64,000 bases of DNA, taken from positions 20,512 to 84,511 of IMG/VR virus record IMGVR_UViG_3300010151_000009; one strand, given 5' to 3'. Below the pieces are notes generated by a model, which saw only the letters and a list, made by a program, of their open reading frames with translations, was not told where the DNA came from and did no database searches. The DNA comes from a virus. Within the stretch, counting starts at the first letter, position 1; every line of letters starts with the position of its first letter. A program made the translations under genes and the position numbers. Below are positions 2,447 through 43,214 of this stretch, piece by piece.

Positions 2447-5400
2447 TTATCTATAAAATTTTCTTTGCTCTACCTTTGTAGAATACAAATTTAGTAAATT
2501 ATTTTCAATATTATCATAAATTAAACGAATTCCTATCCATTTATCTATAAATTTTCTTTGTTGGTCCCAAGTTTTATTAAGATTTAGGTATCCTGCTGTA
2601 ACAGTTTTTGTCATACCCGTCTCAGTAAACATAGATTGTGTATTTGAAGTTGTTAAGGTTCCAGTATTAACTTGCCCTATAACATTAAGATTTGGTGATG
2701 TATAATATGCAGCTGTTTGTGTTGTATCTGCACTTAAGTCTCTAAATCTATTAATCTTCCAATGATTTCCTATACGTCTTATATTAACTAAATATTCTAA
2801 TATATCATTTGGCTGTGTACCATCTCCAGAAACCTGGAATGTATTATATAAAAAGAATGATGTCCATCCGTGCTCTAATACTCTTACTCCAGCTTCATTT
2901 TCTACATCACATGTATAGCCTATATTAGCAGTTAATACATCAAAAGTTGAAGTTTCATTATGAATAAATTCAAAAACACAATCATGAAATATTCTTTGTA
3001 AATCACCTCCATTAAAAGTAGCTATATGTCCATGCGCATCTTCTTGATATAGTACTCCTCTTATAATATCACTATTATGTTTCCATATAGCAGTATTACC
3101 ATATGTTGTACCAAATCCATCATTTACAGTTAAAATAACTGGATATTGATCTGTCATAGAATAAAAATCTGTAGAAGTATTAAAATAAATATAAGGTATA
3201 TAAGTATGGAAACTACTCCAAATATTTAATTCTGGATAATAAGATATTGTCCACCCTCCTTTTGTAAAATAAGCTGGATCATCCCAAGAAATTGGAGTCC
3301 AAGGGTTACATGGAGGTGCAGGTGGAGGCATAGCTATACATGGAAAATAAACTTTAAACACGCATTCATCAGCTATCCACGCCACGGCTCCTGCAGGAGG
3401 CGGAGCAGAAGTAATACTTGTACTATCTATCAAAAGCTGTGTAGGGTCTATTTGTCTCTTTGTTAAAATTATTCTTCTATATTTTGGATCCCAAATTGTA
3501 TGTAATCCGGTTCCTGCTATAGGATTATCTAATCCTCCCATACATGCTTCCTGGACTCCAAATTGAGATAAAGTATCAAATGTAGATAAATTATCTTGAA
3601 ACCATTGTTTCATACCTAAATCACTAAGTTCAACAAGTTTATCTCTCATTAAGAATACTTTTCTAGTAGCAGCATTAACAAAGAAGTATCCATGTCTTGT
3701 TGTAATGGCTGCCCATTGAGATTGAGTTCCACCATATCCTCCATCAGTTGAAATAATCTCTGTTGGTTCTTGTTCAAATAAATCTCCACTTCCTAAATAT
3801 GCATCTGATCCATCTCCCATTTGCATAGTTTGTTTTCCCGTTGCTTTAAATAAAGTTTCTTCCATATGGAAGTATAATAAATTATTAAAAGCAGATAACT
3901 TCCACAAGTCTCCTCTATTCTTAGGAAGATCTTTAAATTGATTAGCTAAGAATACTCTATAATTATCTATAATACTAGATGTATCTGCTTTAGCACTTCT
4001 ATGTACTCGAGTAGGAAATTCATCTTGTGTTGTATCTAAAACTGGTAATGGAAAAGCAGGCCTTAAATCATTGTTCTCAGAGTAATTTGAATTATATTTC
4101 ATATTATCTACATGAGTAAAATCATGGTCATCTACTCCAGCACTTATTAACATATTTTTAGCTACAGATCCAGGAAAGTACATACTTTTACTAGATTCTT
4201 CATGTCTAAAATTTATATTATCAGTTCCTTCGGTTATATAATAATGTAAAGCTTTTCTAGGATTTGAAGGACTACTAGCATCACTTGGTTTTATATGAGA
4301 AGCAAACCCGTATCTGCATATATATGTATCTCCGCCATATATATTTTTATCTATTAAAGGCTTATCCCATACACTACTATCTAAAGTTTTCGTACGATAA
4401 TCAGCAGTATTTCCACTAGATCCATTAGATCTATAATATACATCAGTACTAGCTGATCCGCTCCAACCATTATCTAGAGTAGGCTCATCAAAAACAAAAT
4501 TTTCCATGTCATCTCCTAAGCATTCCCATCCTGTCCAAATTAAATTCTGAGTATCAACTGATTTATACAGATCTGTTTTAAAAGCTACAAGATTACCTAT
4601 GTTATAAGCTGATCTAGCTCCAGGGACACCACTAGCATTTATCTCATTAATTGCTAATGAAGGAAATAGTCCAGTATTATGCATATAATCTCCCCATTCA
4701 TTTGGTTGAGGACATCCAGGAGCAGATATTGGTAAGGTTAAATTTTGATTCCATCCTGGTCTGTTATAAGTAGAATCAGCATACATTTCATGTTCATCCG
4801 CAAAGCCAAGAGCTATACAACTTTCTCCAAATTCATTGAATAATTTACCTCCAAACCCTAAAGCTGTACCATTAAATATAGAATCTCCTAATAAATATGT
4901 TTTTGCTTTTTGCCCTAACATTCTAGGATATCTATAAAATCCATTACTACTTCCACCATTTTGTGATCTATAACCGGACTGATATAGAACTCCCGCAAAT
5001 ATAGCTGTATGCATTCGTTGGGGGTAACAATTAAATTGTGCATCCCATCCCCATTCTTCTTTAGGCACTTTCATTTTTGGATCAGTAGACTCATCCTCAA
5101 CTAACTTAGTTTGCATTCTTTTCTCTTGATCTAATCCTGGACCATTAAATGCTATATTCTTAACTCTATAACAATTCTTATAATGTGTTGCTGGAGTAAT
5201 ACTTTCTTTACTTCTTAATAAATAAAAATCATGAAAAGAAAATATCTCATAAGCATAATCACAAGTATTAGGTGGACCTTCACATCCAAATGTATTTGTA
5301 TACCATGTTCCATCCGAATCATCTATGAATTGCAAAGGAGTTGAATACGCCCAAGGAGAAACTGCAGTTGGATCTTTAATCCAAAACTGTTCTGGCAAAT

Positions 5401-9580: not shown

Positions 9581-10441
9581 CTATTCAAATAAAAGAGGTG
9601 TACCAGGTTCTATAAATCCTCCAGTTCTATATTTGGGCCCATACTTAACACTGTCTGCCCTTTTCTTCGCCTTTTTCGTTTTATCTGATTGCGTTTCTTG
9701 ATTTTTCTTCTTATTATTTTTATTTTTATTTTTAGTTATACTAGTTGGCTTTTTCTCTTTAGGCCTTTGAATACTATCAGGAATTCCATTTTTATCTTTA
9801 TCCCAATCATCATTCTTAGTGGTGTTATCCTTCTTTGTTAATGTATCAGGATAAGACTTCTTCACATCCCATTTACCAGTTTTCTTATAGACTTCATTCT
9901 GTCTTTTAGCTTCTTTGGTATACTCTGCCTCACTCATATTTTTATACGTCTTACTTCTATTTTTATAAGCTTGACTATAAGACTTCTTCTTCGTAGTAGT
10001 TTTCTTAGTATTGTTATCTGTTTTTACAGTATTGTTTGTTGGAGTAGTATCTGTTTTAACAGTTGTATTTGTTGTAGTAGTAGTACTCTTATTATCTTTC
10101 TTATTCTGTAATTCAGTAGTTTTATCTGATGTATACCCTCTCTTATCTGCTTTTATCTTTTTACGTAGAGTTCTTCTTTCTTGTCTATCTTCTTTTTTCA
10201 TTGCTCTCCTACCCTTTCTCCATTCTTTTCTTTTAGTTCGGATAGCCTTTCTACTAGATTTTCTATCTGCCTTTCTTTCATCTTTAGGCATTCTAGATTC
10301 TTCTCCAGCATCATTTATTTTATCCTTTCTTTTTAATCTCCATTCTTTTCTTTTTGAACGGATTGCAGTTCGAGAAGCTTTTCTATCTGCTCTTCTTTCT
10401 TCTCGTTGTGCTTTTCTTAATGTTCTAACTTGATTTGCCAT
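9581..10441 (-). CDS. Highly basic Lys/Arg-rich protein, candidate DNA-condensing core/cargo protein
   Basis: 286 aa; duplicated RKASRTAIRSKRKEWR / RKSSRKAIRTKRKEWR, Thr-rich linker, C-terminal KYRTGGF. Confidence 0.6.
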   Translation of the reverse strand: MANQVRTLRKAQREERRADRKASRTAIRSKRKEWRLKRKDKINDAGEESRMPKDERKADRKSSRKAIRTKRKEWRKGRRAMKKEDRQERRTLRKKIKADKRGYTSDKTTELQNKKDNKSTTTTTNTTVKTDTTPTNNTVKTDNNTKKTTTKKKSYSQAYKNRSKTYKNMSEAEYTKEAKRQNEVYKKTGKWDVKKSYPDTLTKKDNTTKNDDWDKDKNGIPDSIQRPKEKKPTSITKNKNKNNKKKNQETQSDKTKKAKKRADSVKYGPKYRTGGFIEPGTPLLFE

Positions 10442-19500: not shown

Positions 19501-22500
19501 TGGGTCAAAATTAAAAGCTAATGGATCTGTACATCCATAAACACACGGAATACAACAACAATCAGGTCCGGTTTGGCCTAAGACGCATGGAGGCCCGTAT
19601 AAAGCAGCTAATGGATCTGAATCATCACAATGACAAGTAGCAGCAGAGTTATAATTAGAAGCTAATGGATCCATACATCCGTATATACAACAAGCTGGTG
19701 TAGGAGTTCCTACTGTTACTTGCCAAGATGTAGCAAACATTCCTAATGTTCCTGATCCTATAGTTGTAGCTGTATTTACATCTATAAGACTCCAAGCTAA
19801 ATAATTTCCAATAATATCAGGAGGAACTACTAAACAAGTCTCTACAAGATAACAATCATCTTCAGCACAAAATATATCAGCTGAGAATGTAGTAATAGTA
19901 GGATATGCAACACTATTTGAAGTCCAAGTATATGGTCCATATACTGTTCCTGTATTTTGACCTGTAAGAGTAATAGTACAAGTATCCCATGCTAGATCCA
20001 TTCCACTTAAATTATCATCAGATAATACTAATTCAATTTCAGTTTGTCCAGGAGGACACCCACAACAATCATTATCATCTGTCCCATCACATAATGTACA
20101 ACATGGGCAGGTAGCTAGTGGATTATAATTTCCTGCTGTTGGGTCCATACAACCACATACAGGTAAAGTAATAGCTTGTGTATATTCATGATTACATACT
20201 GTTCCGTCTGCATAAGTTACTGTAGCAATCCATTTATATGTACCATCTCCATTAGCAAAGTATGGTGCTCCAGAGTTAAGTAGTGTATTACAATCTTCTA
20301 TAATTGAATGTGTATATGTTGTATTTACCCCACTATCTGTCTGCACATTAGCATTTATAACAGTAAATACAGCAGGAGCAATTTCATATGAAAGTGACCA
20401 TACAACAGTGGTAATAGGAGATGGACCTGGAGTAGGGCAAGTTAACATAACCCACATATCTACTACACATGGACCATTTGTTGCTCCAGTTCCAGAAGTT
20501 AATCCAGTACATTGAGCACAAGGAGTTGGATAAATACAACATCCATCATCATATCCAGGATTAGTAATTGTAAACCCAGCACAATTATCTAATAAGTTTG
20601 TGGCAGGTGTTCCAGGATATAATGATCCAAATCCTCCCATATTATTAATATATGTCATAGGCATAGACCCATCATCTAAACATGCAATACAACTACCATC
20701 ATCTATAGTAGCTCCAGCATTATAATTTGTAGAATTAACATCTGTACACCCATATGTAGCAACACAAACTGAACAATTAGTCGTAGCATGTGTTGCTGCT
20801 ACTGTTGCAGGAACAAGAGCAGGATTAGGTAGTGGTAATCCAGGTCCTGGTAAGGGAAGCATAGAATAATTATATGTATTAGGTAAAACAGGCCATGTAT
20901 CATGACATACCTGTCCCACATATTCCCAGCATGTAAGTGTAGTACCCCATCCACCACCATTAGTATAATATGGCATCATCACTGTTTCTCCCGGAAGAAT
21001 TGAAGCTCCTAATGCAGTTTCGAAAGCATCAAACCAATCTTGATTGTCATCTACAGTTTGAGCTATTGTACTTGCAACAGGAGCAAAGAATTCATTGGAT
21101 CCATTACATGTCTGAAATATATGCCAATAATGACAACAAGAATTCCATCCTACAGCAGTAGTACCTGCAGCTGTACCATCACAGTTATTAGTCCAAACAT
21201 TACTATAATCACCAGCACAAACATCTAAACATCCATTTGTACCATATGTACAAGTTCCATCATCACAATCAGCTGCTGCATTATAGTTAGATGCTAAAGG
21301 GTCTGTACATCCACATACTTCTAAAACTACAGCAGTTATTGGACTACTATAATTACATTTTGTACCGCTAGCACCTCCATAATATAATGAAATATTTACT
21401 TGATAATTTCCGGCTCCATGAATAAACTCATCTATTGAATTAATACAATCATAAGAATATGTTGCACTAATAGGGTCTGTAATAGGGAGTCCTGCAAAAC
21501 TTGTTCCTGCAACTAAAGTATTAGCCCCACCTGGATCAAATCTTAATTCAATATCATAAGTAGCAATTACTCCATTTGTAATTAAATCACATGTAAATAA
21601 AAAGTCATAATCAGTTGGACATGGATTTGATGCATTTGCAGTAAAGGTATTTGTTATAGAAGGAGGATCACAACAAGGATATATACAACAACTTGTATCA
21701 GGACCTCCTAACGTACATAAACAATCAGCATTATAAGATGCACTATAATTAGCTGCAGTTGGATCCATACAGCCTTCATAAAGACAACAAGTATCAACTC
21801 CCCATGTTCCTCCAAGTATATAAGCTGCACTTCCTGGCAGATTATTATTACAATCTGTTGTACAGCCTACACAGGTATTACACGCAGCTGGATCCATACA
21901 TCCTGGTATACACATAAAACAAGAGCCATCATCTATACAAGCCATTGGATCGTAATTACACATCATTGGATCAGTACATCCTAGTGTAGTACAACAAGCA
22001 ATAGTACTATTAAATGAAGATTGATGTAGTACAATTTCAATTAAACTATTTGTACAATTTCCCCAATCAGCAGATCCTATAGTATTACTTATTTGTGCTC
22101 CAGTCGCAGCTCCAGTTATTAATTGATGACAGGTATTTATAAGAGCATCAGTGATAGGTCCAGGTGTAGTAACTGTATGATATACAAACCCTAATGCATT
22201 CGTAGTTCCTATAAGTACATTTCCTCCTCCATTTAGCTCTAGATGTATATCATAACCAGTAACTGGTACACCAAATTGATCTACTACACTTATAGCTAAA
22301 CAATGACAATCTGCACACCCACAAACTCCACTTCCTCCTAATGTATATAAAAAAGGAGTTATAGTATTAACAAAACTAGTTGTTGTTACTCCCACATCAA
22401 AATGTTGTTGAGCTAAATCCCATCCATAATTATCTAAACCACCATATCCTGCATCATGTAGAAGAGCACTTCCACTTCCTCCAGGAACATTATTAACTCC

Positions 22501-34500: not shown

Positions 34501-35770
34501 CATTACTAAGTTTTGAAACATCATCCTCAAATATATTTATTTTTGAAGTATATGCACTTCTGTCAGGGGCTCTACCATATCTAGAATGTGTTTGTCCTGG
34601 AAAATCTCCATAATATACAACATCACTGTTACCACGTACACCACTAAAACCCGCTCGATTTCCTACTCCTCCAGTAGGAGTTGTACCCATAAACTCAGCT
34701 AATTGTTTTGGGTCGCTAGGATCAAATCCATATTTCTCTGCTGCTTTTAGTAATTCCTCATTTCTCATAACGTTACCATTTATATTAACAGTACGATATG
34801 CATTATTTCTTGAAGAATACTCCTTAAGTAAATCTTCTCTAGTAGTTATTTGTTTATATCCAGCATCACTATTTTTAACTATACCTGGTTGGTGTAAATC
34901 AGATAATTGTTTATTTAATTGTGCTTTTTTTCCTCTATCTAGAACATTATAAACTTTTTTACCAACGTTTTTACCCTGTTTAAGAACAGCTCCTCCAGCA
35001 AATGGTACGGCTATACCTGCCATTGAAAGACTTGCGTCACCATAATTACCTCTGTATGTAGATGCCGCAGCACTTAAAAGATCTCCTACTTCTGAAACAA
35101 TTGGAATACCTGTCATACCTATAGCATCTCCCGCTTTAACAGGATCTGTTAAAAACTCTGTTATATCTTCCTTAGCTTGTATCACATGTTTTTTTGTTGC
35201 CTCTTTATCATCAGCTACTTTTACATTTTTTTCCTCGAAAGTCATTGGAGTCCCATCTTTATTATAGTACTTAGAACCTTGAGTTGTACTTACAGTATTA
35301 GAAAGAATTCCTTTATTTTTTGCTGTCTTTGTCGTACCAGTCTTTTCTTCTTCTAAGAATTGGTTAATAAACGCATCCTTATCAAATCCAGCATCTTGAT
35401 ATTTTCTTACACCACCTTTTTGATAGGTACCAGGAGATTCAATAACAGTTCCTTCATCTTCTCCCATAGAAAGATTTTGTATTCCTGGAGGAACAGATTT
35501 ATATGATCTAACTAAATTACCTTGATTGTCAACTTTTTTAATGTCTATAGGTTCAGACATTCCTACAGTATTCATAGGACCTGAAACATTTGGAAATACC
35601 ATACTAGATCCAGGAGGCGCTCCTCTTAAACCTTGCTCTTGCTCTGCTTTAGTTCGAGCAACTTTAGCATTTGCAATCTGCTCTTTTTTAATTAGATCTC
35701 CTATAGATCCTTTATAATCATTAGCAAGAGCTGACTTTAATATCTCAAATTGTTTTTCTAATGCATTCAT
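31547..35770 (-). CDS. Multidomain virion cargo protein: pre-toxin-TG-like module, lysozyme/transglycosylase-like domain, PG-binding domain, CHAP/NlpC amidase, second transglycosylase-like domain
   Basis: GIPIVSEVGDLLSAAASTYRGNYGDASLSMAGIAVPFAG; AIGNHES...GPGRGTYQF; VEEIQ...GVDGKFGPMTKLA; CAEYV...GHAW...GDVV...THVG; AMHES...HNQG...YI. Confidence 0.7.
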   Translation of the reverse strand: MNALEKQFEILKSALANDYKGSIGDLIKKEQIANAKVARTKAEQEQGLRGAPPGSSMVFPNVSGPMNTVGMSEPIDIKKVDNQGNLVRSYKSVPPGIQNLSMGEDEGTVIESPGTYQKGGVRKYQDAGFDKDAFINQFLEEEKTGTTKTAKNKGILSNTVSTTQGSKYYNKDGTPMTFEEKNVKVADDKEATKKHVIQAKEDITEFLTDPVKAGDAIGMTGIPIVSEVGDLLSAAASTYRGNYGDASLSMAGIAVPFAGGAVLKQGKNVGKKVYNVLDRGKKAQLNKQLSDLHQPGIVKNSDAGYKQITTREDLLKEYSSRNNAYRTVNINGNVMRNEELLKAAEKYGFDPSDPKQLAEFMGTTPTGGVGNRAGFSGVRGNSDVVYYGDFPGQTHSRYGRAPDRSAYTSKINIFEDDVSKLSNDQIYDRISGLDNYGHNDPSMGIFNTSTDIKSLDKIPHGGVINTNTIHPPGISTTTQIVGKQNIPIRQSKGILSGDEIRQLTNDGKNPFTTFKKGGLRKYQNGGGRDSKVPQGVIDGIKPATSQTDQYISQVRATHDAGHESLYTITKNYLIKTGRNMDYVRTVMSAIGNHESYNNPEQKQVSYKTVDGKRVPFDGPGRGTYQFENTEDGSGNTAVNVTKQFLENKGNIDFREANHSSVNKLKDNYQNSSSDFSTFDKEDQDAIFLIEKIYHGTQQRDAFDKLVKGKKPPTDEQIFEFWGKYHKKSFSYTLKDKSKVKYSWDKLPKKYKDEERKKWNNRKSTKKQDGGFYDNDLYQIEPLPTDQIQSQVPIIPTVTVEEPEDAPEVVEDEKEPEVYDHNLTDVNVKDMYESYDRNIEQNNQIRAEKEVKESAAEVVKTYFGQYTRMNQEDVEEIQREIIASGRGDMLGSYGPNKDGVDGKFGPMTKLAYEQVLMDKLQTTQSLYFDPANRDSFCYEDGCAEYVNNEYEREGYDAWGMGVGGHAWTMEQNIIDHGGVQKFSIYNHSDFDNVLNANDARTKSIVHRKTNQPSAEIFQVGDVVGLVYDNSREWEAAYDGHTGDSYNTHVGWVTEIRDGVPYISHQINATGAGGIVHEDAYNDITGGGIAWVTSPKTNKPQWKYQYESEEIQHDNDAYIEFLAEKREKVDTIEIGDKNNKVDNKILIGYTDKEKEILNDNINFVKNNVAPITSDLGIEIDHNWLSEAVLATAMHESHLGLNKPTDTKIAKSRILRNIIGEESDRGAVSRGILKIKLDGTAQGTADYYNLNDANIDDQDSRSLAYTIDRFARRYAVLSKYATDNPSLGLTEQDVRNMTILTHNQGSGKLFKFGQNEGMSIDAQLELLREGYFGETSDLSGTNWGRLESLFGKEFALHARDKLSNDENPEAYISQINRYINRRLQPYTAEEDAVLTASIQKTGGYKQRLAW

Positions 35771-38079
35771 TTCTTAGTAGTTCCTGAACTTGGCTTAGGT
35801 TTTGCTTTTGCAATTTTCTCTTTAGACTTAATTTCTTTACCTTTAAGTTTAAGTTCATCCCTTCTAATACTTTCATCTGCTTTATTAGCTCTTTCTTTTT
35901 CATCTGCTTCTTTTACTTTAGTATCAGAATCTTGCAATTTAACTCCTATCTCTTGATCGCCTTGTACAGAATCTAAACTAATTCTAGCATTATTGTCATC
36001 CGCATGAATCATAGCAACTTTAATTTGAGTTTCTCTATCTTTTTGCTTATTCATGTTATCATTCTCTAGAACATCTTTAGCTTGTTCAAGTTTTTGTTGC
36101 TCAATTTCATTTTTAGATTGTTGTTGTTCTTGTTCTAATTGTTGTAACTGTTTCTCTGCAGCAGCTACTTTTGCTTTAATAGATGAGAAGTTTTCAGATT
36201 CTAACATATGAACTATAGTTGAAGACGGAACTCCATTTTGAATCATTGATTGCGATAATTGTTTTATTAGATCTAACTTTTCTTGCTCTTTACCAGAATC
36301 TTTAACAAAAATACCATAATTTGATTCCATATGAGACATGCTATCAATATCTAGAAATTCTTGAGTTCCATCAGGCATCATAAAAGCAGCTTTCTTTCCG
36401 TCAATCCAAGCTTCTTTAGAATAATCTAACATTGCTTGTAAATCTCTTTGTTCCATTCTATTAAACTTTTTAAATAAATCTTCTGTAATATGGGATGATT
36501 GTACAATTGCTTGTTGAGCAACTGCTTTACCTTCATATGGACCTACTGTACCTTGTCTTTGTCTATTAACTCCAGATAATTTTTCCCATTCAACCATAAT
36601 TGACTCTAATAATGCAATATATTGATCAATAGTTTTAATTGACATATCCATTACAGATTGATGTTGAGGATTTAATTGTATTCCTTCTTTATTATAATCT
36701 ACCCAAGCTATTCCTGTACCTTCAACATAATACATAAACTTATCCATATCCCATTTTTTAGGGATCATATTAATATCAAATTGAGCGATAATGTCTTTAC
36801 TTCTTGCAATAGCAAGTTCTAATCTATATTTATAGATATTATATGTTAATTGAAATGGGATCCCGAGAGCTACTAAAGAAATATTTTGAGCGTTTGTATC
36901 TGAATAATGTCTTCCATTTATAGGAAGTTTACATGTAGATTCATTATCTAAAGATTCTCTTTGATTAGCTATAGGATTAATATTAATATACATTCGTCCA
37001 TCAATTCGTGTACCTTCCCAAACTTCATTTACCCACATCCAAGAAATTTTAGCTCCTTGAGCTTTCATTTCTGCAGGCATTCTGAATCCATCTTCTACCT
37101 CTTGTTCTTCCATAGCTCCAGTCAAAGGATCTAAGTAAGATAAAAACCCTACTCTTTTCCTAGATTTCCAATATACATTTATAACCTCTAATAATCTATT
37201 TCTATAAGCATTAGGATCTTTACCTGATGAACTCGCATACATTAAATAAGAGTCTGCTTCTGAATGAGTAGGATTTTCTAAATTTAAAACTTGTTCTTCA
37301 GTTAACCATTCATAATATTGATCAACAACTGTAGACGCATGCATGTATTTTCTAATTAATGCCCAATCTCCATCTTCAACAAACTCTAAATCTGGGTCTA
37401 AATCATAATCTACATCAATTGGATTTAATACGTCTAAGAATGGTTCTCCATTTCTAACTCCTCTATGAGTATAAGTTTCTCCAGCAACTAAAAAATGAAA
37501 CCATGCCTGACTAAATTTATCTTCAGCTTCTTGCTGAGCCATAACATATGTTAAAGCATGTTGTCCTTTAATAGCTCTGTTATCTACATACGAATTCTCA
37601 AATTGATCTGCTATATGTTGAGGTAACTCTATATCATAATTATCAATGCCTGTATCTACTCCTCGAGCATTCATTTGATTAACAAACATTTCTTGCATAC
37701 CTCTCATAATAGCGTCTTGTTTTGACTCTTCTTTAATTGAGATTGCATCTGCATTTTTAACTACAACGGTGAAATTGAGAGGTCTTTTAGACTTTTCTCC
37801 GAGAAGGAGATCAATTATAGGCTTTATAATAGGATAGTTACGCATTCTAGATGGGAAATTACTTCGACTTTTACCATACGGTTTAAGTACGTGCGTATAG
37901 TCTCCCTCATCAATTACACCATTATAGTAATCATATAATCTTTTCAGATTATCTTTATTAGTGGCATATCCAGTACCTTGATTTGAGAGGTCAATATATG
38001 CCTCTACACAAGCTTCTCTCCACTGTTTAGTTTTTTTATTGACAGCTAACCTCTGCCGTGGTATTTTATCATAGCCCAT
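35767..38079 (-). CDS. Portal protein
   Basis: 770 aa; IPRQRL, YDYYNG, NYPIIKPIIDLLLGE, WVNEVWEG, CKLP, LSGVNRQRQG, QSSHITE motifs of the crAss portal. Confidence 0.9.
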   Translation of the reverse strand: MGYDKIPRQRLAVNKKTKQWREACVEAYIDLSNQGTGYATNKDNLKRLYDYYNGVIDEGDYTHVLKPYGKSRSNFPSRMRNYPIIKPIIDLLLGEKSKRPLNFTVVVKNADAISIKEESKQDAIMRGMQEMFVNQMNARGVDTGIDNYDIELPQHIADQFENSYVDNRAIKGQHALTYVMAQQEAEDKFSQAWFHFLVAGETYTHRGVRNGEPFLDVLNPIDVDYDLDPDLEFVEDGDWALIRKYMHASTVVDQYYEWLTEEQVLNLENPTHSEADSYLMYASSSGKDPNAYRNRLLEVINVYWKSRKRVGFLSYLDPLTGAMEEQEVEDGFRMPAEMKAQGAKISWMWVNEVWEGTRIDGRMYININPIANQRESLDNESTCKLPINGRHYSDTNAQNISLVALGIPFQLTYNIYKYRLELAIARSKDIIAQFDINMIPKKWDMDKFMYYVEGTGIAWVDYNKEGIQLNPQHQSVMDMSIKTIDQYIALLESIMVEWEKLSGVNRQRQGTVGPYEGKAVAQQAIVQSSHITEDLFKKFNRMEQRDLQAMLDYSKEAWIDGKKAAFMMPDGTQEFLDIDSMSHMESNYGIFVKDSGKEQEKLDLIKQLSQSMIQNGVPSSTIVHMLESENFSSIKAKVAAAEKQLQQLEQEQQQSKNEIEQQKLEQAKDVLENDNMNKQKDRETQIKVAMIHADDNNARISLDSVQGDQEIGVKLQDSDTKVKEADEKERANKADESIRRDELKLKGKEIKSKEKIAKAKPKPSSGTTKK

Positions 38080-38085
38080 AATCTA

Positions 38086-38093
38086 CAAAAGTA
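38086..38093 (-). promoter_or_regulatory. Bacteroidota-type -7 promoter box (TACTTTTG) for the portal
   Basis: TAnnTTTG ending 6 nt before the portal ATG. Confidence 0.6.
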
Positions 38094-38157
38094 CTTAAAT
38101 TTTTAGTTATTTTTACTTATTAGTCTTATTTATTATTTTATATTATAATATATCACT

Positions 38158-38487
38158 TTAAAGATAATCACATATACTATATAAACTATATTGTAAAGTC
38201 AATTCTTCTCCTTGTTCTATTTTTCTTAATGTTTTTAATTTTTTGTAATCATCATTTTCATCATCTTCTATAAGTTCACAATTAGGAGTTTCAGAATGAT
38301 TAATAAATCCTCCTAATGGCGTACGTATATAATCATGTTGAAAATTTGGATCATATACATGACTTATACCTATAACTACCTCCCCCGGAATATCTTCTGT
38401 AGCGAGAATCCCAGCTCCATGAATTTGTGACGGACCTATTGCTAAGTACTCCGGTAGAGGGTTATAAGGTAATTTCTTTTTTTTCAT
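38158..38487 (-). CDS. SET-domain protein (putative lysine methyltransferase)
   Basis: SQIHGAGILATEDIPG, GGFINHSETPNC, RKIEQGEELTLQY: all canonical SET motifs. Confidence 0.88.
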   Translation of the reverse strand: MKKKKLPYNPLPEYLAIGPSQIHGAGILATEDIPGEVVIGISHVYDPNFQHDYIRTPLGGFINHSETPNCELIEDDENDDYKKLKTLRKIEQGEELTLQYSLYSICDYL

Positions 38488-40451
38488 TAATAATAATTTT
38501 TATTAAACCATTCATTAGAAGCATTATCTTCTAATATATCTTTAACTTCTGCATTATATAATTCTTTAGTATGATACATACCAATCATAAATGCCATTAC
38601 ACGGTCAAAATTGCCTTTATGATTGAATTTAATTAATTCTGTTAAAAATGCAGGATCATAAATCTTATGCAAATTTAGTAATTGTTTTCCATTTTCGTCT
38701 GTTCTTCTTACAGTATTTAACCAGTCTCTAATATAAATCTCTCCTTGACGTTTCCTAGGTTCTGTCATGTGCATACCATATTGACGTTTTACTGTTCTAC
38801 TTCTAAGTTCTTTTTTATCTAACATCTCAAACTCTTCTTGTAATTTATGTAACTTTCTATGTCTTTTAGCGTATGATATAACCTCCCCACGATCATTCTC
38901 AAATCCTATTTTACATCCATAATAATCTGCTAATGTAAATAAATTTCTATTATAATCATCTTGCGTATTAGGTCGTCCTACATAAGATGCTACTATAATA
39001 TCATCAGGCTGAGATAAATTATTAGGTCTTTTTAATACATATGCAGCGCCTAATGATGTGCTATCTGCAGATTGGTTTTGTCCATACGGGTCATGACAAA
39101 TTACATACATATTTAGAGGTACTTGTTGCGCAGAGTTTTTATAAGGAGATTCATATATTACTACAGCTCCTGTAGTATCATCATCTTTCCTATGAGGAAA
39201 TTTTAATACTTGTTTTAAATCTCCATCTGGTTTAAATTTAACATCTCCTTTAGAATTATAATATAAACGTCCAACTGTACCTATAGCCTGTAAATTATTA
39301 GCTTTTATATTATTATATTGTTCTTGTAAAGATGCAACATCAAATAAATTAGCAGTTACTTGTAAAGTAGCCTCTTGAGGTGAAAAAGGGTGCTCCGCTA
39401 TATATTGGTCTAATGATTTTGCATCAGCTGCACCCTTCTTCTTTTCCCTCATTCCTTTCTCATACTCTATAGCTTGTTCTCTTATTGAATTTCCATTCTC
39501 GTCTATAAAGCCATCTAGATTTGTTTGTATAGGAATAAAATATCCACATGTACTCCCCATAGCACCTTCATCCCATATATTCTCATAATTCATACAATCA
39601 TATGCTTCTGGATTATAAAAGATTTCTTCCATTGCCTCAAAATCTGCTCCTTCTGTACCACCTGTTCCAAAAGCTACCATTAATCCTAGTGTTTTAGAAC
39701 CTTGTCTCATTGTTGGCATTGTTACTTCCCATGCTTTTAATAGTCCTGGGAATGAACCCGCTTCTTCAAAGAATACTAACTCCCCTGCTTTACCCCTTAC
39801 TTTATCTGGTGCATCTTTTAATGATACTCCCATTATTTGAGATTTCATCCCCATTTCTATTTCAATTCCATTAACTTTTTTCTTATATCCAGACATCTTA
39901 TTCATTTCCCTATCACGTAATCTTGGTTGAGCCCATGCCGTATGATCATCTATAAAAGATAAAAACTCCCAAGCTTTTGAGAGTAATCCATCACCAATTA
40001 AATATTCTTTTTGGGAGGCAAATACAAAGTTTTTTGAATTCTTTACAAAGAAATAGTTTCTAGCAAGCATGGCTCCAGCTTTATAAGAATATCCTTTACG
40101 CCTTGCTTTAAGAACAATCATATGTTTATTCTCTGCCCTAGCTTTGTCTATCTCATTAAAATATTCCCAATCTCCATCATAAAATCTAGGAAATGTACGT
40201 TCCCGTTTAGATTGAATTGTACCATCTGGAAGTTCTTCATCTACAGCCCTATCAATAGGACAGTAGTTTAAATAAAAATAATGAAAGCCTGTAACATGTA
40301 ATTCATCTACTTTATATCCATACATGCACCGTTCCTTTTCTTCATCCCAATACTCATAATAATCACGAGTTCCAGGAAGAGCATCTGTATAACGACCGGT
40401 CTCTAAAAATCTGACTGCGGCTGGTCTGAGTCTGTCTGTGTCTCTGAGCAT
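38487..40451 (-). CDS. terL: Terminase large subunit
   Basis: LKARRKGYSYK (Walker A), FEEAG (Walker B), GTGG, HDPY nuclease motif, GNFDRVMA. Confidence 0.92.
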   Translation of the reverse strand: MLRDTDRLRPAAVRFLETGRYTDALPGTRDYYEYWDEEKERCMYGYKVDELHVTGFHYFYLNYCPIDRAVDEELPDGTIQSKRERTFPRFYDGDWEYFNEIDKARAENKHMIVLKARRKGYSYKAGAMLARNYFFVKNSKNFVFASQKEYLIGDGLLSKAWEFLSFIDDHTAWAQPRLRDREMNKMSGYKKKVNGIEIEMGMKSQIMGVSLKDAPDKVRGKAGELVFFEEAGSFPGLLKAWEVTMPTMRQGSKTLGLMVAFGTGGTEGADFEAMEEIFYNPEAYDCMNYENIWDEGAMGSTCGYFIPIQTNLDGFIDENGNSIREQAIEYEKGMREKKKGAADAKSLDQYIAEHPFSPQEATLQVTANLFDVASLQEQYNNIKANNLQAIGTVGRLYYNSKGDVKFKPDGDLKQVLKFPHRKDDDTTGAVVIYESPYKNSAQQVPLNMYVICHDPYGQNQSADSTSLGAAYVLKRPNNLSQPDDIIVASYVGRPNTQDDYNRNLFTLADYYGCKIGFENDRGEVISYAKRHRKLHKLQEEFEMLDKKELRSRTVKRQYGMHMTEPRKRQGEIYIRDWLNTVRRTDENGKQLLNLHKIYDPAFLTELIKFNHKGNFDRVMAFMIGMYHTKELYNAEVKDILEDNASNEWFNKNYY

Positions 40452-41222: not shown

Positions 41223-41771
41223 CTAAGATTCTTTTTTAGTTAATCCTCCAGTATAGATATTTTTTAATCTACTATAGTTTTCTTTAAATTCTGTAGTTAT
41301 TATTTTTGCTTTAATTTTATAAGATGGAGCATATAAATATTTTAAAACTGCTAATCTGTGATTTCCATCTTGACATCTCCAAGGGAATTCATCTAGTGAA
41401 GGCGAGCCTTGAGTTACCTTATGTCTTTTTGCAATAAGAAGACTATTAACAATCCCGTCTGTTTCAATACTTTTTTTCATTTTAGTCCAATTATAATTAG
41501 TTACTTTACCCCATTGGTTCCAATCTGTATAGTCTACGACATCATCAAAAGTACCTTTAACGTCTCCAATAGTTACATAGATATAAGGTAATTTAGCATA
41601 TTCTATTTTCACAAAGATATATAATATAGTCTTTAAAATTCCAGAAGGAATAAAAAATTCATGCCAAAATTTTATATAAGCAAACATTCCATATCGTACT
41701 ACATAATTTCGTTGTTCTTTATTATAATGTGTAAAAACAATTCTAAATTTATTTAGGAATTTTCTTATCAT
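41223..41771 (-). CDS. ParB/Srx-like domain protein (paralog A)
   Basis: KMKKSIETDGIVNSLLI...QDGNHRLAVLK. Confidence 0.65.
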   Translation of the reverse strand: MIRKFLNKFRIVFTHYNKEQRNYVVRYGMFAYIKFWHEFFIPSGILKTILYIFVKIEYAKLPYIYVTIGDVKGTFDDVVDYTDWNQWGKVTNYNWTKMKKSIETDGIVNSLLIAKRHKVTQGSPSLDEFPWRCQDGNHRLAVLKYLYAPSYKIKAKIITTEFKENYSRLKNIYTGGLTKKES

Positions 41772-41976
41772 TTTTCTTTTTTAAATGTTTTAATCTACCT
41801 GTTTTAACTGAAAACTTACCAAAATATGGAAGTCTAATACCATCAAAATTTCCTTGTTTCATAATATCTGTTATAAATTTAAATTGATAATTTACAACCT
41901 TAGATACTGTTTGTAAAGGTAAATTATACTTATTAGCTAATTTATATATTATAAATTGCTTATCAATCATCGACAC
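41749..41976 (-). CDS. HU/IHF-like DNA-binding protein
   Basis: LANKYNLP...V...QFKFI....GIRLPYFGKFSVK. Confidence 0.75.
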   Translation of the reverse strand: MSMIDKQFIIYKLANKYNLPLQTVSKVVNYQFKFITDIMKQGNFDGIRLPYFGKFSVKTGRLKHLKKKNDKKIPK

Positions 41977-42457
41977 AGATACAATCTTTTCTTACCCACC
42001 ATTGTGTATCTTTTCCATCCACAGAAGGTTTCAATTCTATCTTTGGAAATACAAAACATAATACTTTATAATCAGAGGGTAAAACTTTTTTAGCTGCTGC
42101 TATTCTATGTAATCCATCTATTATTCTTAATCCATCATCACAATAACCTGTAATTGTATGTTTGATATTAGATGATTTACATAAATGAATAGGCATTACT
42201 ACTCCTTGTTTTTTAATATCTTGTTCTAATTTATCCCAATTATAATTACTATGTCTTCTTGTTACTTTAAATGCACTTAATGGTAATTTTTTAATCTTCA
42301 TTGTTTTCCATTTAAGATTAAAATCTAACCATAATATTCTATACCATTTAAACCAAAAGAATCTTTCATCTTGCTCTATATTATAATAATTTTGAGCTTT
42401 TGTTCTATATGGTTTTCTAAATAGCTCTCTAATTATCCTCAGTATTCGCATCATCAA
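41963..42457 (-). CDS. ParB/Srx-like domain protein (paralog B)
   Basis: KLEQDIKKQGVVMPIHL...IIDGLHRIAAAK. Confidence 0.7.
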   Translation of the reverse strand: MMMRILRIIRELFRKPYRTKAQNYYNIEQDERFFWFKWYRILWLDFNLKWKTMKIKKLPLSAFKVTRRHSNYNWDKLEQDIKKQGVVMPIHLCKSSNIKHTITGYCDDGLRIIDGLHRIAAAKKVLPSDYKVLCFVFPKIELKPSVDGKDTQWWVRKDCICVDD

Positions 42458-43214
42458 TTCTTTTCCAGTCCTTTGTACTTATATGTTTTGGGAAATTACC
42501 ATACCCATCTGCTCTTCGAGGATCTTTTTCAACCCACTCTTTATACTCTTGACTCTGTTTGTGTATCTCTTTAGCTTTATTTTCTTGGGCTGTCTTTTGT
42601 TGCGCTGCTAACCATTTTTCCCCATCAGGTGTTTTTAACCATTCCGCTCTTTTTACTCTAGCTTCTTCATGCTTTGCTTTTTCTTGTTCTGTTTTTGGGG
42701 TTGGATCTTGTTTTGCCCATCGGGTAGGATCATCTGGACAAGTAGTTGTTCTCCATCTAGCTTTAGTTTCTAACATACACCCACAAAGGCCACATCTCAT
42801 TTTTTCTCTCATTAAATGAGGACAAGCATCACATGCTGCTAAACGAGCTTCATAATCTTCTTGTGATACATTTGGAGCTCCTTCTGCAACATATTTAGCT
42901 ACTTCTTTACTAAAGTTTTTAGCCATTTGCCACACACTTGGGGGTTTAATAACTCCTTTTTCTTCAGGATATTCTCCGTCTTTATAATATTCTTCTCCTA
43001 CTTCTCCATCTGTTGCATATGTTGCACCCCCTATATTAACTCTTGTTATACCATCCTCACCTTTTTGTACATCGGCTAATTTGGATTTATCCATACTTTC
43101 CTTAGTAATAGGTTCAAAATTATGAATAACTTTATTTGTTAAATCATATTTTTTTCCTTTTAATAGTTGATCCATAAAATCATCTCCAGGGTTTTTATCT
43201 TTTTTCTTACTCAT
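42429..43214 (-). CDS. Cys-cluster (Zn-binding, DUF6171-like) protein
   Basis: RLAACDACPHL...RCGLCGCML..KA....TCP....W. Confidence 0.65.
   Translation of the reverse strand: MSKKKDKNPGDDFMDQLLKGKKYDLTNKVIHNFEPITKESMDKSKLADVQKGEDGITRVNIGGATYATDGEVGEEYYKDGEYPEEKGVIKPPSVWQMAKNFSKEVAKYVAEGAPNVSQEDYEARLAACDACPHLMREKMRCGLCGCMLETKARWRTTTCPDDPTRWAKQDPTPKTEQEKAKHEEARVKRAEWLKTPDGEKWLAAQQKTAQENKAKEIHKQSQEYKEWVEKDPRRADGYGNFPKHISTKDWKRIDDANTEDN

Follow-up and report, generated by a model that had tools for sequence, protein, structure and literature searches.

A small SET-domain gene, probably encoding a dimeric lysine methyltransferase, is an optional cassette between the terminase and portal genes of crAss-type phages

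The 64,000-nucleotide stretch of viral DNA analysed here (the window; positions 20,512 to 84,511 of IMG/VR record IMGVR_UViG_3300010151_000009, an 84.5-kb genome of a marine crAss-like phage, estimated to be 98% complete) encodes, between the genes for the large terminase subunit (terL) and the portal protein, a stand-alone SET domain of 109 amino acids (aa), termed here mini-SET. The gene (38158..38487, minus strand) is an optional single-gene cassette and no constant component of the packaging module. In the explanation that we consider likely as a whole, mini-SET belongs to a marine family of the same name and is an active, probably homodimeric S-adenosylmethionine (SAM)-dependent lysine methyltransferase, most likely translated late from the terL message. 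Its cassette, which fits precisely into the gap between the terL stop codon and a conserved spacer upstream of portal, would be dispensable and gained, lost or exchanged among lineages. Since the cassette is optional, appears to be exchanged and belongs to a family common to marine bacteria and phages, the target would more likely be a broadly available protein, whether a conserved host protein or any accessible lysine-rich one, than a dedicated partner in a phage chromatin.

The intact open reading frame (ORF) matches the Pfam SET family PF00856 well above its cut-off (40.2 bits against 22.4, E=5e-10; 34.6 bits in a genome-wide search). Its product is a member of phrog_28741, which covers residues 8-107 (E=3e-24). 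The preliminary description of the window, made from the letters alone, had pointed to a minimal SET domain with intact GxG, FINHSxxPN and GEELTxxY motifs, and all three are indeed present: the SAM-binding GxG motif as G24-A-G26, aligning with GRG/GLG of MLL, the NH(S) motif as F61-INHSETPN-69, and the C-terminal motif, with the presumed catalytic tyrosine, as G93-EELTLQY-100, in which the stretch from E95 to Y100 aligns with ELTYDY of MLL. The remaining recognizable segments are YxPLP at residues 8-12, IRTPLGG, which runs into the NH(S) motif (54-69), and an acidic loop at about 72-80. SET is the only domain detected in the 109 aa; the relatives are 97-146 aa long, no pre- or post-SET domain occurs in the family, and YxPLP and IRTPLGGFxNHS are its marks. 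The protein is acidic, with an isoelectric point (pI) of 4.8 and a median of 4.97 in the viral clade. Similar proteins are abundant in the ocean, with 797 clusters at E<=1e-3 (90% identity, similar length) and 1096 related representatives at 50% clustering, so the SET match lies far beyond chance. Searches of mini-SET against NCBIfam and PADLOC gave zero matches, and a role in defence or anti-defence was rejected on the PADLOC result.

Structure prediction points in the same direction. The AlphaFold2 model, built from a 71-sequence alignment, reached a predicted local distance difference test (pLDDT) of 90.8 and a predicted template modelling score (pTM) of 0.79, and Foldseek returned 214 matches in the PDB at E<=1e-3, every listed one a SET lysine methyltransferase; mini-SET is thus predicted to fold as a SET domain. 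The closest small solved analogue is vSET of Chlorella virus (PBCV-1 A612L; 1n3j, 3kma), which the preliminary description had also named. Superposition of 3kma_A on the model gave TMq 0.68 and TMt 0.70 with a root-mean-square deviation of 2.9 over 104 columns, at 16% identity, and the family profile matched vSET 1n3j over its full length (3.1e-9). Both proteins are viral stand-alone minimal SETs (119 aa solved, 109 aa here) devoid of pre- and post-SET modules. The sequence of mini-SET, however, is no closer to vSET than to MLL-type SETs, which include the best sequence and Foldseek matches (MLL/KMT2: 4z4p, 7w67, 6u9n; MLL4 at 7e-11 with the family profile), and in the profile alignment with MLL the GxG, (R/G)FINHSxxPN and GEELTxxY motifs all line up. 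MLL proteins differ in being 150-220-aa cores with a post-SET module and partner proteins.

vSET is described as a side-by-side homodimer (10.1101/264291). For mini-SET a dimer is so far a prediction: the two-copy model scored an ipSAE of 0.69, compared with 0.01 for the best control, with contacts agreeing to at least 82% and a partner pLDDT of at least 84, above a mark that was reached by 20 of 30 solved one-chain pairs and by one of 23 solved single chains. Mini-SET is therefore probably homodimeric, as far as the models go. The predicted interface (residues 8, 10, 16-18, 41-51 and 54-61) uses family-specific residues and would explain why YxPLP and IRTPLGG are invariant.

The gene seems to be maintained as a functional enzyme. 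The window protein was aligned with 78 relatives taken from the fetched loci, and Y8, P10-L11-P12, G24, G26, H43, I54-R-T-P-L-G-G-F61, N63, H64, N69, E95, L96 and Y100 are identical in all 79 sequences. An intact ORF of 102-122 aa was found in all 78 loci, out of 82, from which a SET ORF could be extracted; three of the other four end at a contig edge. Ratios of nonsynonymous to synonymous substitution (dN/dS, Nei-Gojobori) were calculated for 27 genomes with complete terL, SET and portal genes, and the medians over 350/351 pairs were 0.145 for SET, 0.086 for terL and 0.188 for portal, which shows purifying selection on the SET gene. A decaying gene with dN/dS near 1, named in the preliminary description as the outcome that would speak against its proposal, is thus not what was found. 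These data bear directly on the idea that mini-SET is a non-catalytic or decaying remnant, either a SET fold retained only for binding or a selfish passenger. The gene is optional among close relatives and lacks NCBIfam and PADLOC matches, which speaks for such a remnant; the invariance of the catalytic motifs in 79/79 sequences, the low dN/dS and the intact ORFs leave this explanation with very little probability.

The position of the gene is best described from its junctions. The terL gene (38487..40451, minus strand; phrog_6681, 3.5e-140) and the portal gene (35767..38079, minus strand; phrog_6547, 2.7e-122) are both of crAss type, the window TerL sharing about 40% identity with its counterparts in gut crAss-like phages, and from these two genes the host is likely a bacterium. 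The terL stop codon TAA (38489..38487) and the SET start codon ATG (38487..38485) overlap by one base in the sequence TAATG (38485..38489, minus strand), and a 78-nt spacer (38080..38157, minus strand), covered by a junction comparison of 16 loci, separates SET from portal. Two samples were drawn from IMG/VR. Among 80 loci gathered by SET similarity, 70 carry terL and/or portal genes of the window type beside SET in the same order (64 show both flanks and six end at a contig edge), and the other ten have different neighbours. The distance from the terL stop to the SET start is 0-1 nt in all 45 measured loci, and that from SET to portal is 75-98 nt. The overlap on which the preliminary description based a translational coupling of terL and SET is real in the window; in the 45 relatives the genes abut without overlapping, and the coupling itself is deduced from the overlap.

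The second sample, the 80 nearest terL relatives (80-90% identical), gives a fairer estimate of frequency. SET is present at the junction in 46 of them, terL is followed directly by portal in 31, and three are too short to judge. The distribution at this junction, which the preliminary description had suggested examining, is thus mixed, and its statement that the gene is inserted between terL and portal is borne out by the empty sites. In the loci devoid of SET, about 30-86 nt lie between terL and portal (81 nt in L129, counted among the 31). The empty site is clean: the block that follows the SET stop codon where SET is present is the block that follows the terL stop codon where it is absent, and in the window this shared block lies at about 38143..38156, just past the SET stop. 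In the junction comparison SET and terL were seen to end in similar codons.

The evolutionary history of the cassette appears to be separate from that of its neighbour. On a terL tree (FastTree, 89 rows, mixing both samplings, one of which was picked for SET, so that frequency is read from the 80 nearest terL loci only), the presence or absence of SET needs at least seven changes, five of which are imposed by branches with good support. Members of the main clade share 83.2% identity in SET and 87.6% in TerL; when the main clade is compared with a deep one, the values are 84.0% and 75.6% (Spearman 0.20). Likewise, from comparisons within the main clade to comparisons between the main and deep clades, the proportion of nonsynonymous differences (pN) of SET stays flat at 0.092-0.093 and that of terL doubles from 0.077 to 0.157. 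SET divergence is hence decoupled from that of terL, which fits the exchange of the cassette between lineages.

The spacer in front of portal carries two conserved boxes in all 13 junctions of the type of about 80 nt (the window, L105, L113, L089, L107, L111, L117, L122, L128, L133, L138, L146 and L154). The first, a GTGnTATATnTATAA-like block, directly follows the upstream stop codon, and the second, TAnnTTTG, stands 6-7 nt before the portal ATG (38086..38093 in the window, 6 nt). At junctions L145, L157 and L152 the spacer is short, about 30-40 nt, and has neither box. The TAnnTTTG box resembles the -7 promoter element of Bacteroidota; if it is that element, the portal mRNA would be nearly leaderless and the host a member of the Bacteroidota. 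The 38080..38157 spacer contains no stable hairpin and folds no better than shuffled sequences (z = +1.4). SET sits where co-production with the late packaging genes is expected, as the preliminary description had proposed; it abuts the terL stop, and a promoter and terminator of its own, by which a moron is classically recognized, were not found.

None of 24 runs is listed as containing RNA. Three observations on contigs from four runs concern the same region. Contigs of run X15, guessed to be RNA, comprise parts of portal and the start of terL and not SET, which says nothing about expression. A low-depth contig of X5 runs from 38034 straight on to 38527 and so leaves out 492 nt, SET among them; as its likeness is 85% and its inner sequence is not known, it was not counted. 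A depth peak with many loose ends at 38287..38403 corresponds to the conserved SET core common to other organisms.

The junction is one of several places at which phages carry this gene. In L079-L082, which represent a different crAss-type lineage, portal adjoins terL directly, with SET about 0.6-0.8 kb upstream of terL. In L069, L073 and L077 it is the last gene of an operon facing a 1458-1665-aa gene, and in L075 and L076 it comes after an 1800-aa gene, opposite a gene for ribonucleotide reductase; four of these five records have a crAss-type terL tens of kilobases from SET, the fifth being a 37%-complete fragment. The distance between SET and terL exceeds 60 kb in some crAss-type phages. 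In a SET tree (100 rows and 120 columns, quick method; two of 102 rows were dropped for a length outside 90-159 aa), the 18 crAss-type viral sequences, which include at least three positions other than the junction, form one clade (SH-aLRT 98), from which the copies of cyanomyophages and pelagiphages are separate. It follows that phages would have acquired the family on two or more occasions; the tree does not single out a donor. In two complete marine phages the matches to crAss-type terL (G002:C1:8304-10241 and G004:C1:103218-105335) each contain one TAG and one TAA, which could reflect an intron, a split gene or recoding.

A public phage collection holds relatives of mini-SET (31-48% identity) in 11 records and crAss-type terL in 159; none of the 11 is named as a crAss-like, Bacteroides, Flavobacterium or Cellulophaga phage. 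SET stands just upstream of baseplate wedge genes in the cyanomyophages P-RSM6 and AG-345-P14, after nrdB in P-SSM7, and after a Toprim-DnaB primase-helicase gene in pelagiphage Kolga. In Rhodoferax phage P26218 (gp30, L086:3422-4297) and in MW202744 (L087:3548-4309) it forms the C-terminal third of proteins of 253-291 aa with intact motifs, encoded between genes for head closure or stabilisation and genes for DNA ejection. These fused podovirus proteins, which constitute phrog_34170, may represent a virion-borne or ejected SET. The phage contexts of SET are often late or structural, not always.

Relatives are also encoded in bacterial chromosomes. One-per-species bacterial and archaeal genomes were searched for the signature RTPLGGFxNH, which yielded 256 confirmed stretches. 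Of the 80 that were retained from these 256, 50 lie in conserved non-phage neighbourhoods and the other 30 are unclassified. The motifs are well preserved among the 80 (NH in 80, ELxxxY in 79, GxG in 77). In 15 loci, mostly of Marinimicrobia, a divergent CT398/zinc-ribbon gene is followed by SET and then by metK and ahcY on the same strand (L166-L171, L173, L177-L180, L182, L185, L188 and L209, with SET at about 3974-4300 in most), a linkage that indirectly supports the use of SAM by the family. Three of the 15 contigs carry other labels (Flammeovirgaceae, Chloroflexota and Flavobacteriales); their neighbouring genes are about 90% identical to those of Marinimicrobia, and the contigs may be mis-binned. 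Ten loci of SAR11 have the order aminotransferase, alanine dehydrogenase, SET and DAO-GCV_T dehydrogenase, and 18 more the order DAO-GCV_T dehydrogenase, Methyltransf_11, sometimes a Rieske oxygenase, SET and M24 peptidase, the dehydrogenase near SET being dimethylglycine-dehydrogenase-like. The SAR11 copies (L197-L238) have 123-152 aa, with an insertion of about 15-45 aa at the acidic loop of the phage protein. Three Flavobacteriaceae loci read argG-argC-SET-proC-argD (L161, L163 and L187; a mini-SET of 91-97 aa at about 4001-4294), and in four others DUF5001-SET faces a PQQ dehydrogenase gene. The SETs of two contigs from metagenome-assembled genomes, L194 (labelled Methanobacteriota) and L208 (labelled Pelagibacter), group with cyanomyophage and Kolga copies on branches of near-zero length, and these contigs are probably phage DNA.

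Such neighbourhoods raise the possibility of a metabolic role, like that of an auxiliary metabolic gene, in which SET would act on a free amine or a metabolic enzyme, or tune SAM use, as may also be true of its cellular relatives, and would not act on nucleoid or virion proteins. The 15 loci with metK and ahcY, the 28 SAR11 loci among dimethylglycine-dehydrogenase-like, Methyltransf_11, Rieske oxygenase, M24 and alanine dehydrogenase genes, the three arginine operons, and P0210, a 363-aa relative in which SET is fused to Amidoligase_2 (PF12224), all speak for it. However, every characterised SET enzyme, to our knowledge, methylates protein lysines, a shared neighbourhood in streamlined genomes says little about whether genes are functionally linked, and no metabolic partner gene adjoins SET in the phage. 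We regard this role as improbable, and a small-molecule or metabolic function is given an equally slight chance even where mini-SET is the active, late-made methyltransferase of an exchangeable cassette.

Several observations weigh against the explanation that we favour. The Pfam model aligns only with residues 60-100, the C-terminal half of mini-SET. In the HMMER alignment the family has T/S42-H43 where GIYMF of MLL-type enzymes has its tyrosine, a further difference from MLL/KMT2, and with T/S-H at this mid-domain position details of the active site may differ. The score of the two-copy model may stem from likeness to the solved vSET dimer. The flat divergence of SET could be due to constraint or to saturation instead of exchange, the proportion of synonymous differences (pS) being 0.45-0.49. 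As to timing, a promoter scan found 15 promoter-like sites where 17.3 were expected, with no sigma-70 signal above shuffled sequences, and a terminator scan found one terminator-like site, inside terL, and none above shuffles; since the spacer also lacks a stable fold, the transcription units remain a matter of inference. The cellular gene is patchy and not core, being present in 15 of 38 genomes of the Marinimicrobia family and in 13 of 81 and three of 101 sampled genomes of the SAR11 family and Flavobacteriaceae, respectively, many of the genomes in these counts being incomplete. Finally, most phage contexts are structural blocks (packaging modules in crAss-type phages, baseplate neighbours in cyanomyophages, fusions at head-completion and ejection genes in podoviruses) and the enzyme is acidic, which fits a virion or another basic protein as target as well as it fits a host protein.

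The last of these points leads to the idea put forward in the preliminary description, that a late enzyme methylates the phage's own lysine-rich virion, cargo or HU-like proteins, here extended to the enzyme itself being packaged and ejected, as a system of virion or chromatin modification. It draws on the late-module position of SET in two crAss-type lineages, its place beside the baseplate wedge genes of P-RSM6 and AG-345-P14, and its fusion in the P26218 and MW202744 proteins between head-closure and DNA-ejection genes. The low pI and acidic loop of mini-SET also agree with it; an acidic enzyme would suit basic substrates, equally host nucleoid or ribosomal proteins, albeit this is a weak indication. 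The phage moreover encodes both an HU/IHF-like protein (41749..41976, minus strand; PF00216) and a K/R-rich protein of 286 aa (9581..10441, minus strand). The HU/IHF-like gene, however, is found wherever enough upstream sequence is available, in 19/19 loci devoid of SET as well as in 46/46 with it, and was rejected as a fixed partner since its presence is independent of SET. The K/R-rich protein (62 Lys, 30 Arg, pI 10.4) has RKxxRKAIRxKRKEWR-type repeats and a Thr/Asn-rich middle and matches zero PHROG or Pfam families; as nothing ties it to SET, it was set aside as a substrate. Furthermore, 31 of the 80 nearest relatives do without SET with their packaging genes unchanged, the gene follows primase-helicase in Kolga and nrdB in P-SSM7, its chromosomal homologues sit in metabolic operons, and no partner gene travels with it across the contexts inspected. 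With the HU gene independent of SET, an optional cassette, varied positions and bacterial homologues, a dedicated phage chromatin system is left unsupported, and we consider the whole idea of virion or chromatin modification unlikely. Elsewhere in the window, a gene at 42429..43214 (minus strand) encodes a 261-aa protein with a Cys-rich stretch that scores 26.1 bits for DUF6171 (E=1.2e-5), under the cut-off of 27.

If mini-SET is the late-made, exchangeable methyltransferase favoured here, a host protein, an alternative that the preliminary description had also offered, is its leading candidate target, at somewhat less than even chances, and a phage virion or DNA-binding protein is about half as probable. 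A broader proposal, which we hold only tentatively and think rather doubtful, is that mini-SET is a horizontally traded marine enzyme that methylates one universally conserved bacterial protein, or possibly a free amine. It would be kept in streamlined bacteria, as in Marinimicrobia beside metK-ahcY and in SAR11, and would have entered phages on two or more occasions, with one capture in the crAss-type clade and another in the cyanomyophage and pelagiphage group. Should this be true, phages of Bacteroidota, cyanobacteria and SAR11 would share one reaction that reprograms the host late in infection.

Characterised SET enzymes offer limited guidance as to the substrate. The target of vSET is H3K27, which cannot be that of mini-SET if, as is likely, its host is a bacterium without histones. 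Prokaryotes are known to have SET enzymes of their own (the archaeal Go1-SET, which acts on MC1-alpha, the chlamydial NUE, LegAS4, BtSET and BaSET), and LegAS4 (5czy) matches the mini-SET family profile at 2.8e-7. BtSET and BaSET are treated in a review that also cites the studies on archaeal MC1-alpha and on the chlamydial enzyme (PMC10117894). The characterised prokaryotic proteins differ from mini-SET in being larger secreted effectors that act on eukaryotic histones, or an archaeal chromatin enzyme, and none of those named is an enzyme of about 100 aa from free-living marine bacteria or phages.

The occurrence of SET in tailed phages is already recorded in databases, where it is uncharacterised: UniProt and BFVD list phage SET proteins, e.g., 'SET domain containing protein [uncultured Caudovirales phage]', one GenBank phage record names its gene after the vSET structure, and both phrog_28741 and phrog_34170 are labelled 'unknown function'. 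A search of full-text literature, supplements being outside it, found no paper on SET of tailed or crAss-like phages, cyanophages, SAR11 or Marinimicrobia; two apparent matches were false, PMC10172136 referring to 'C2-set domains' and PMC2938197 containing an unrelated table. The present analysis adds measurements of selection on SET, the precise form of the empty site, the finding that SET divergence is decoupled from that of terL, the range of positions that the gene takes up in crAss-type phages, a dimer prediction that would account for the family motifs, and the chromosomal relatives beside genes of the SAM cycle.

Protein lysine methylation is almost unexplored in phage infection, and the mini-SET family occurs both in bacteria themselves and in phages that infect three major marine host groups. 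With a size of about 100 aa, a structure predicted with high confidence, and natural relatives with and without the gene, it provides an easy entry point. A defined substrate would tell host take-over from virion maturation, and would also reveal the role of the smallest SETs in streamlined marine bacteria.

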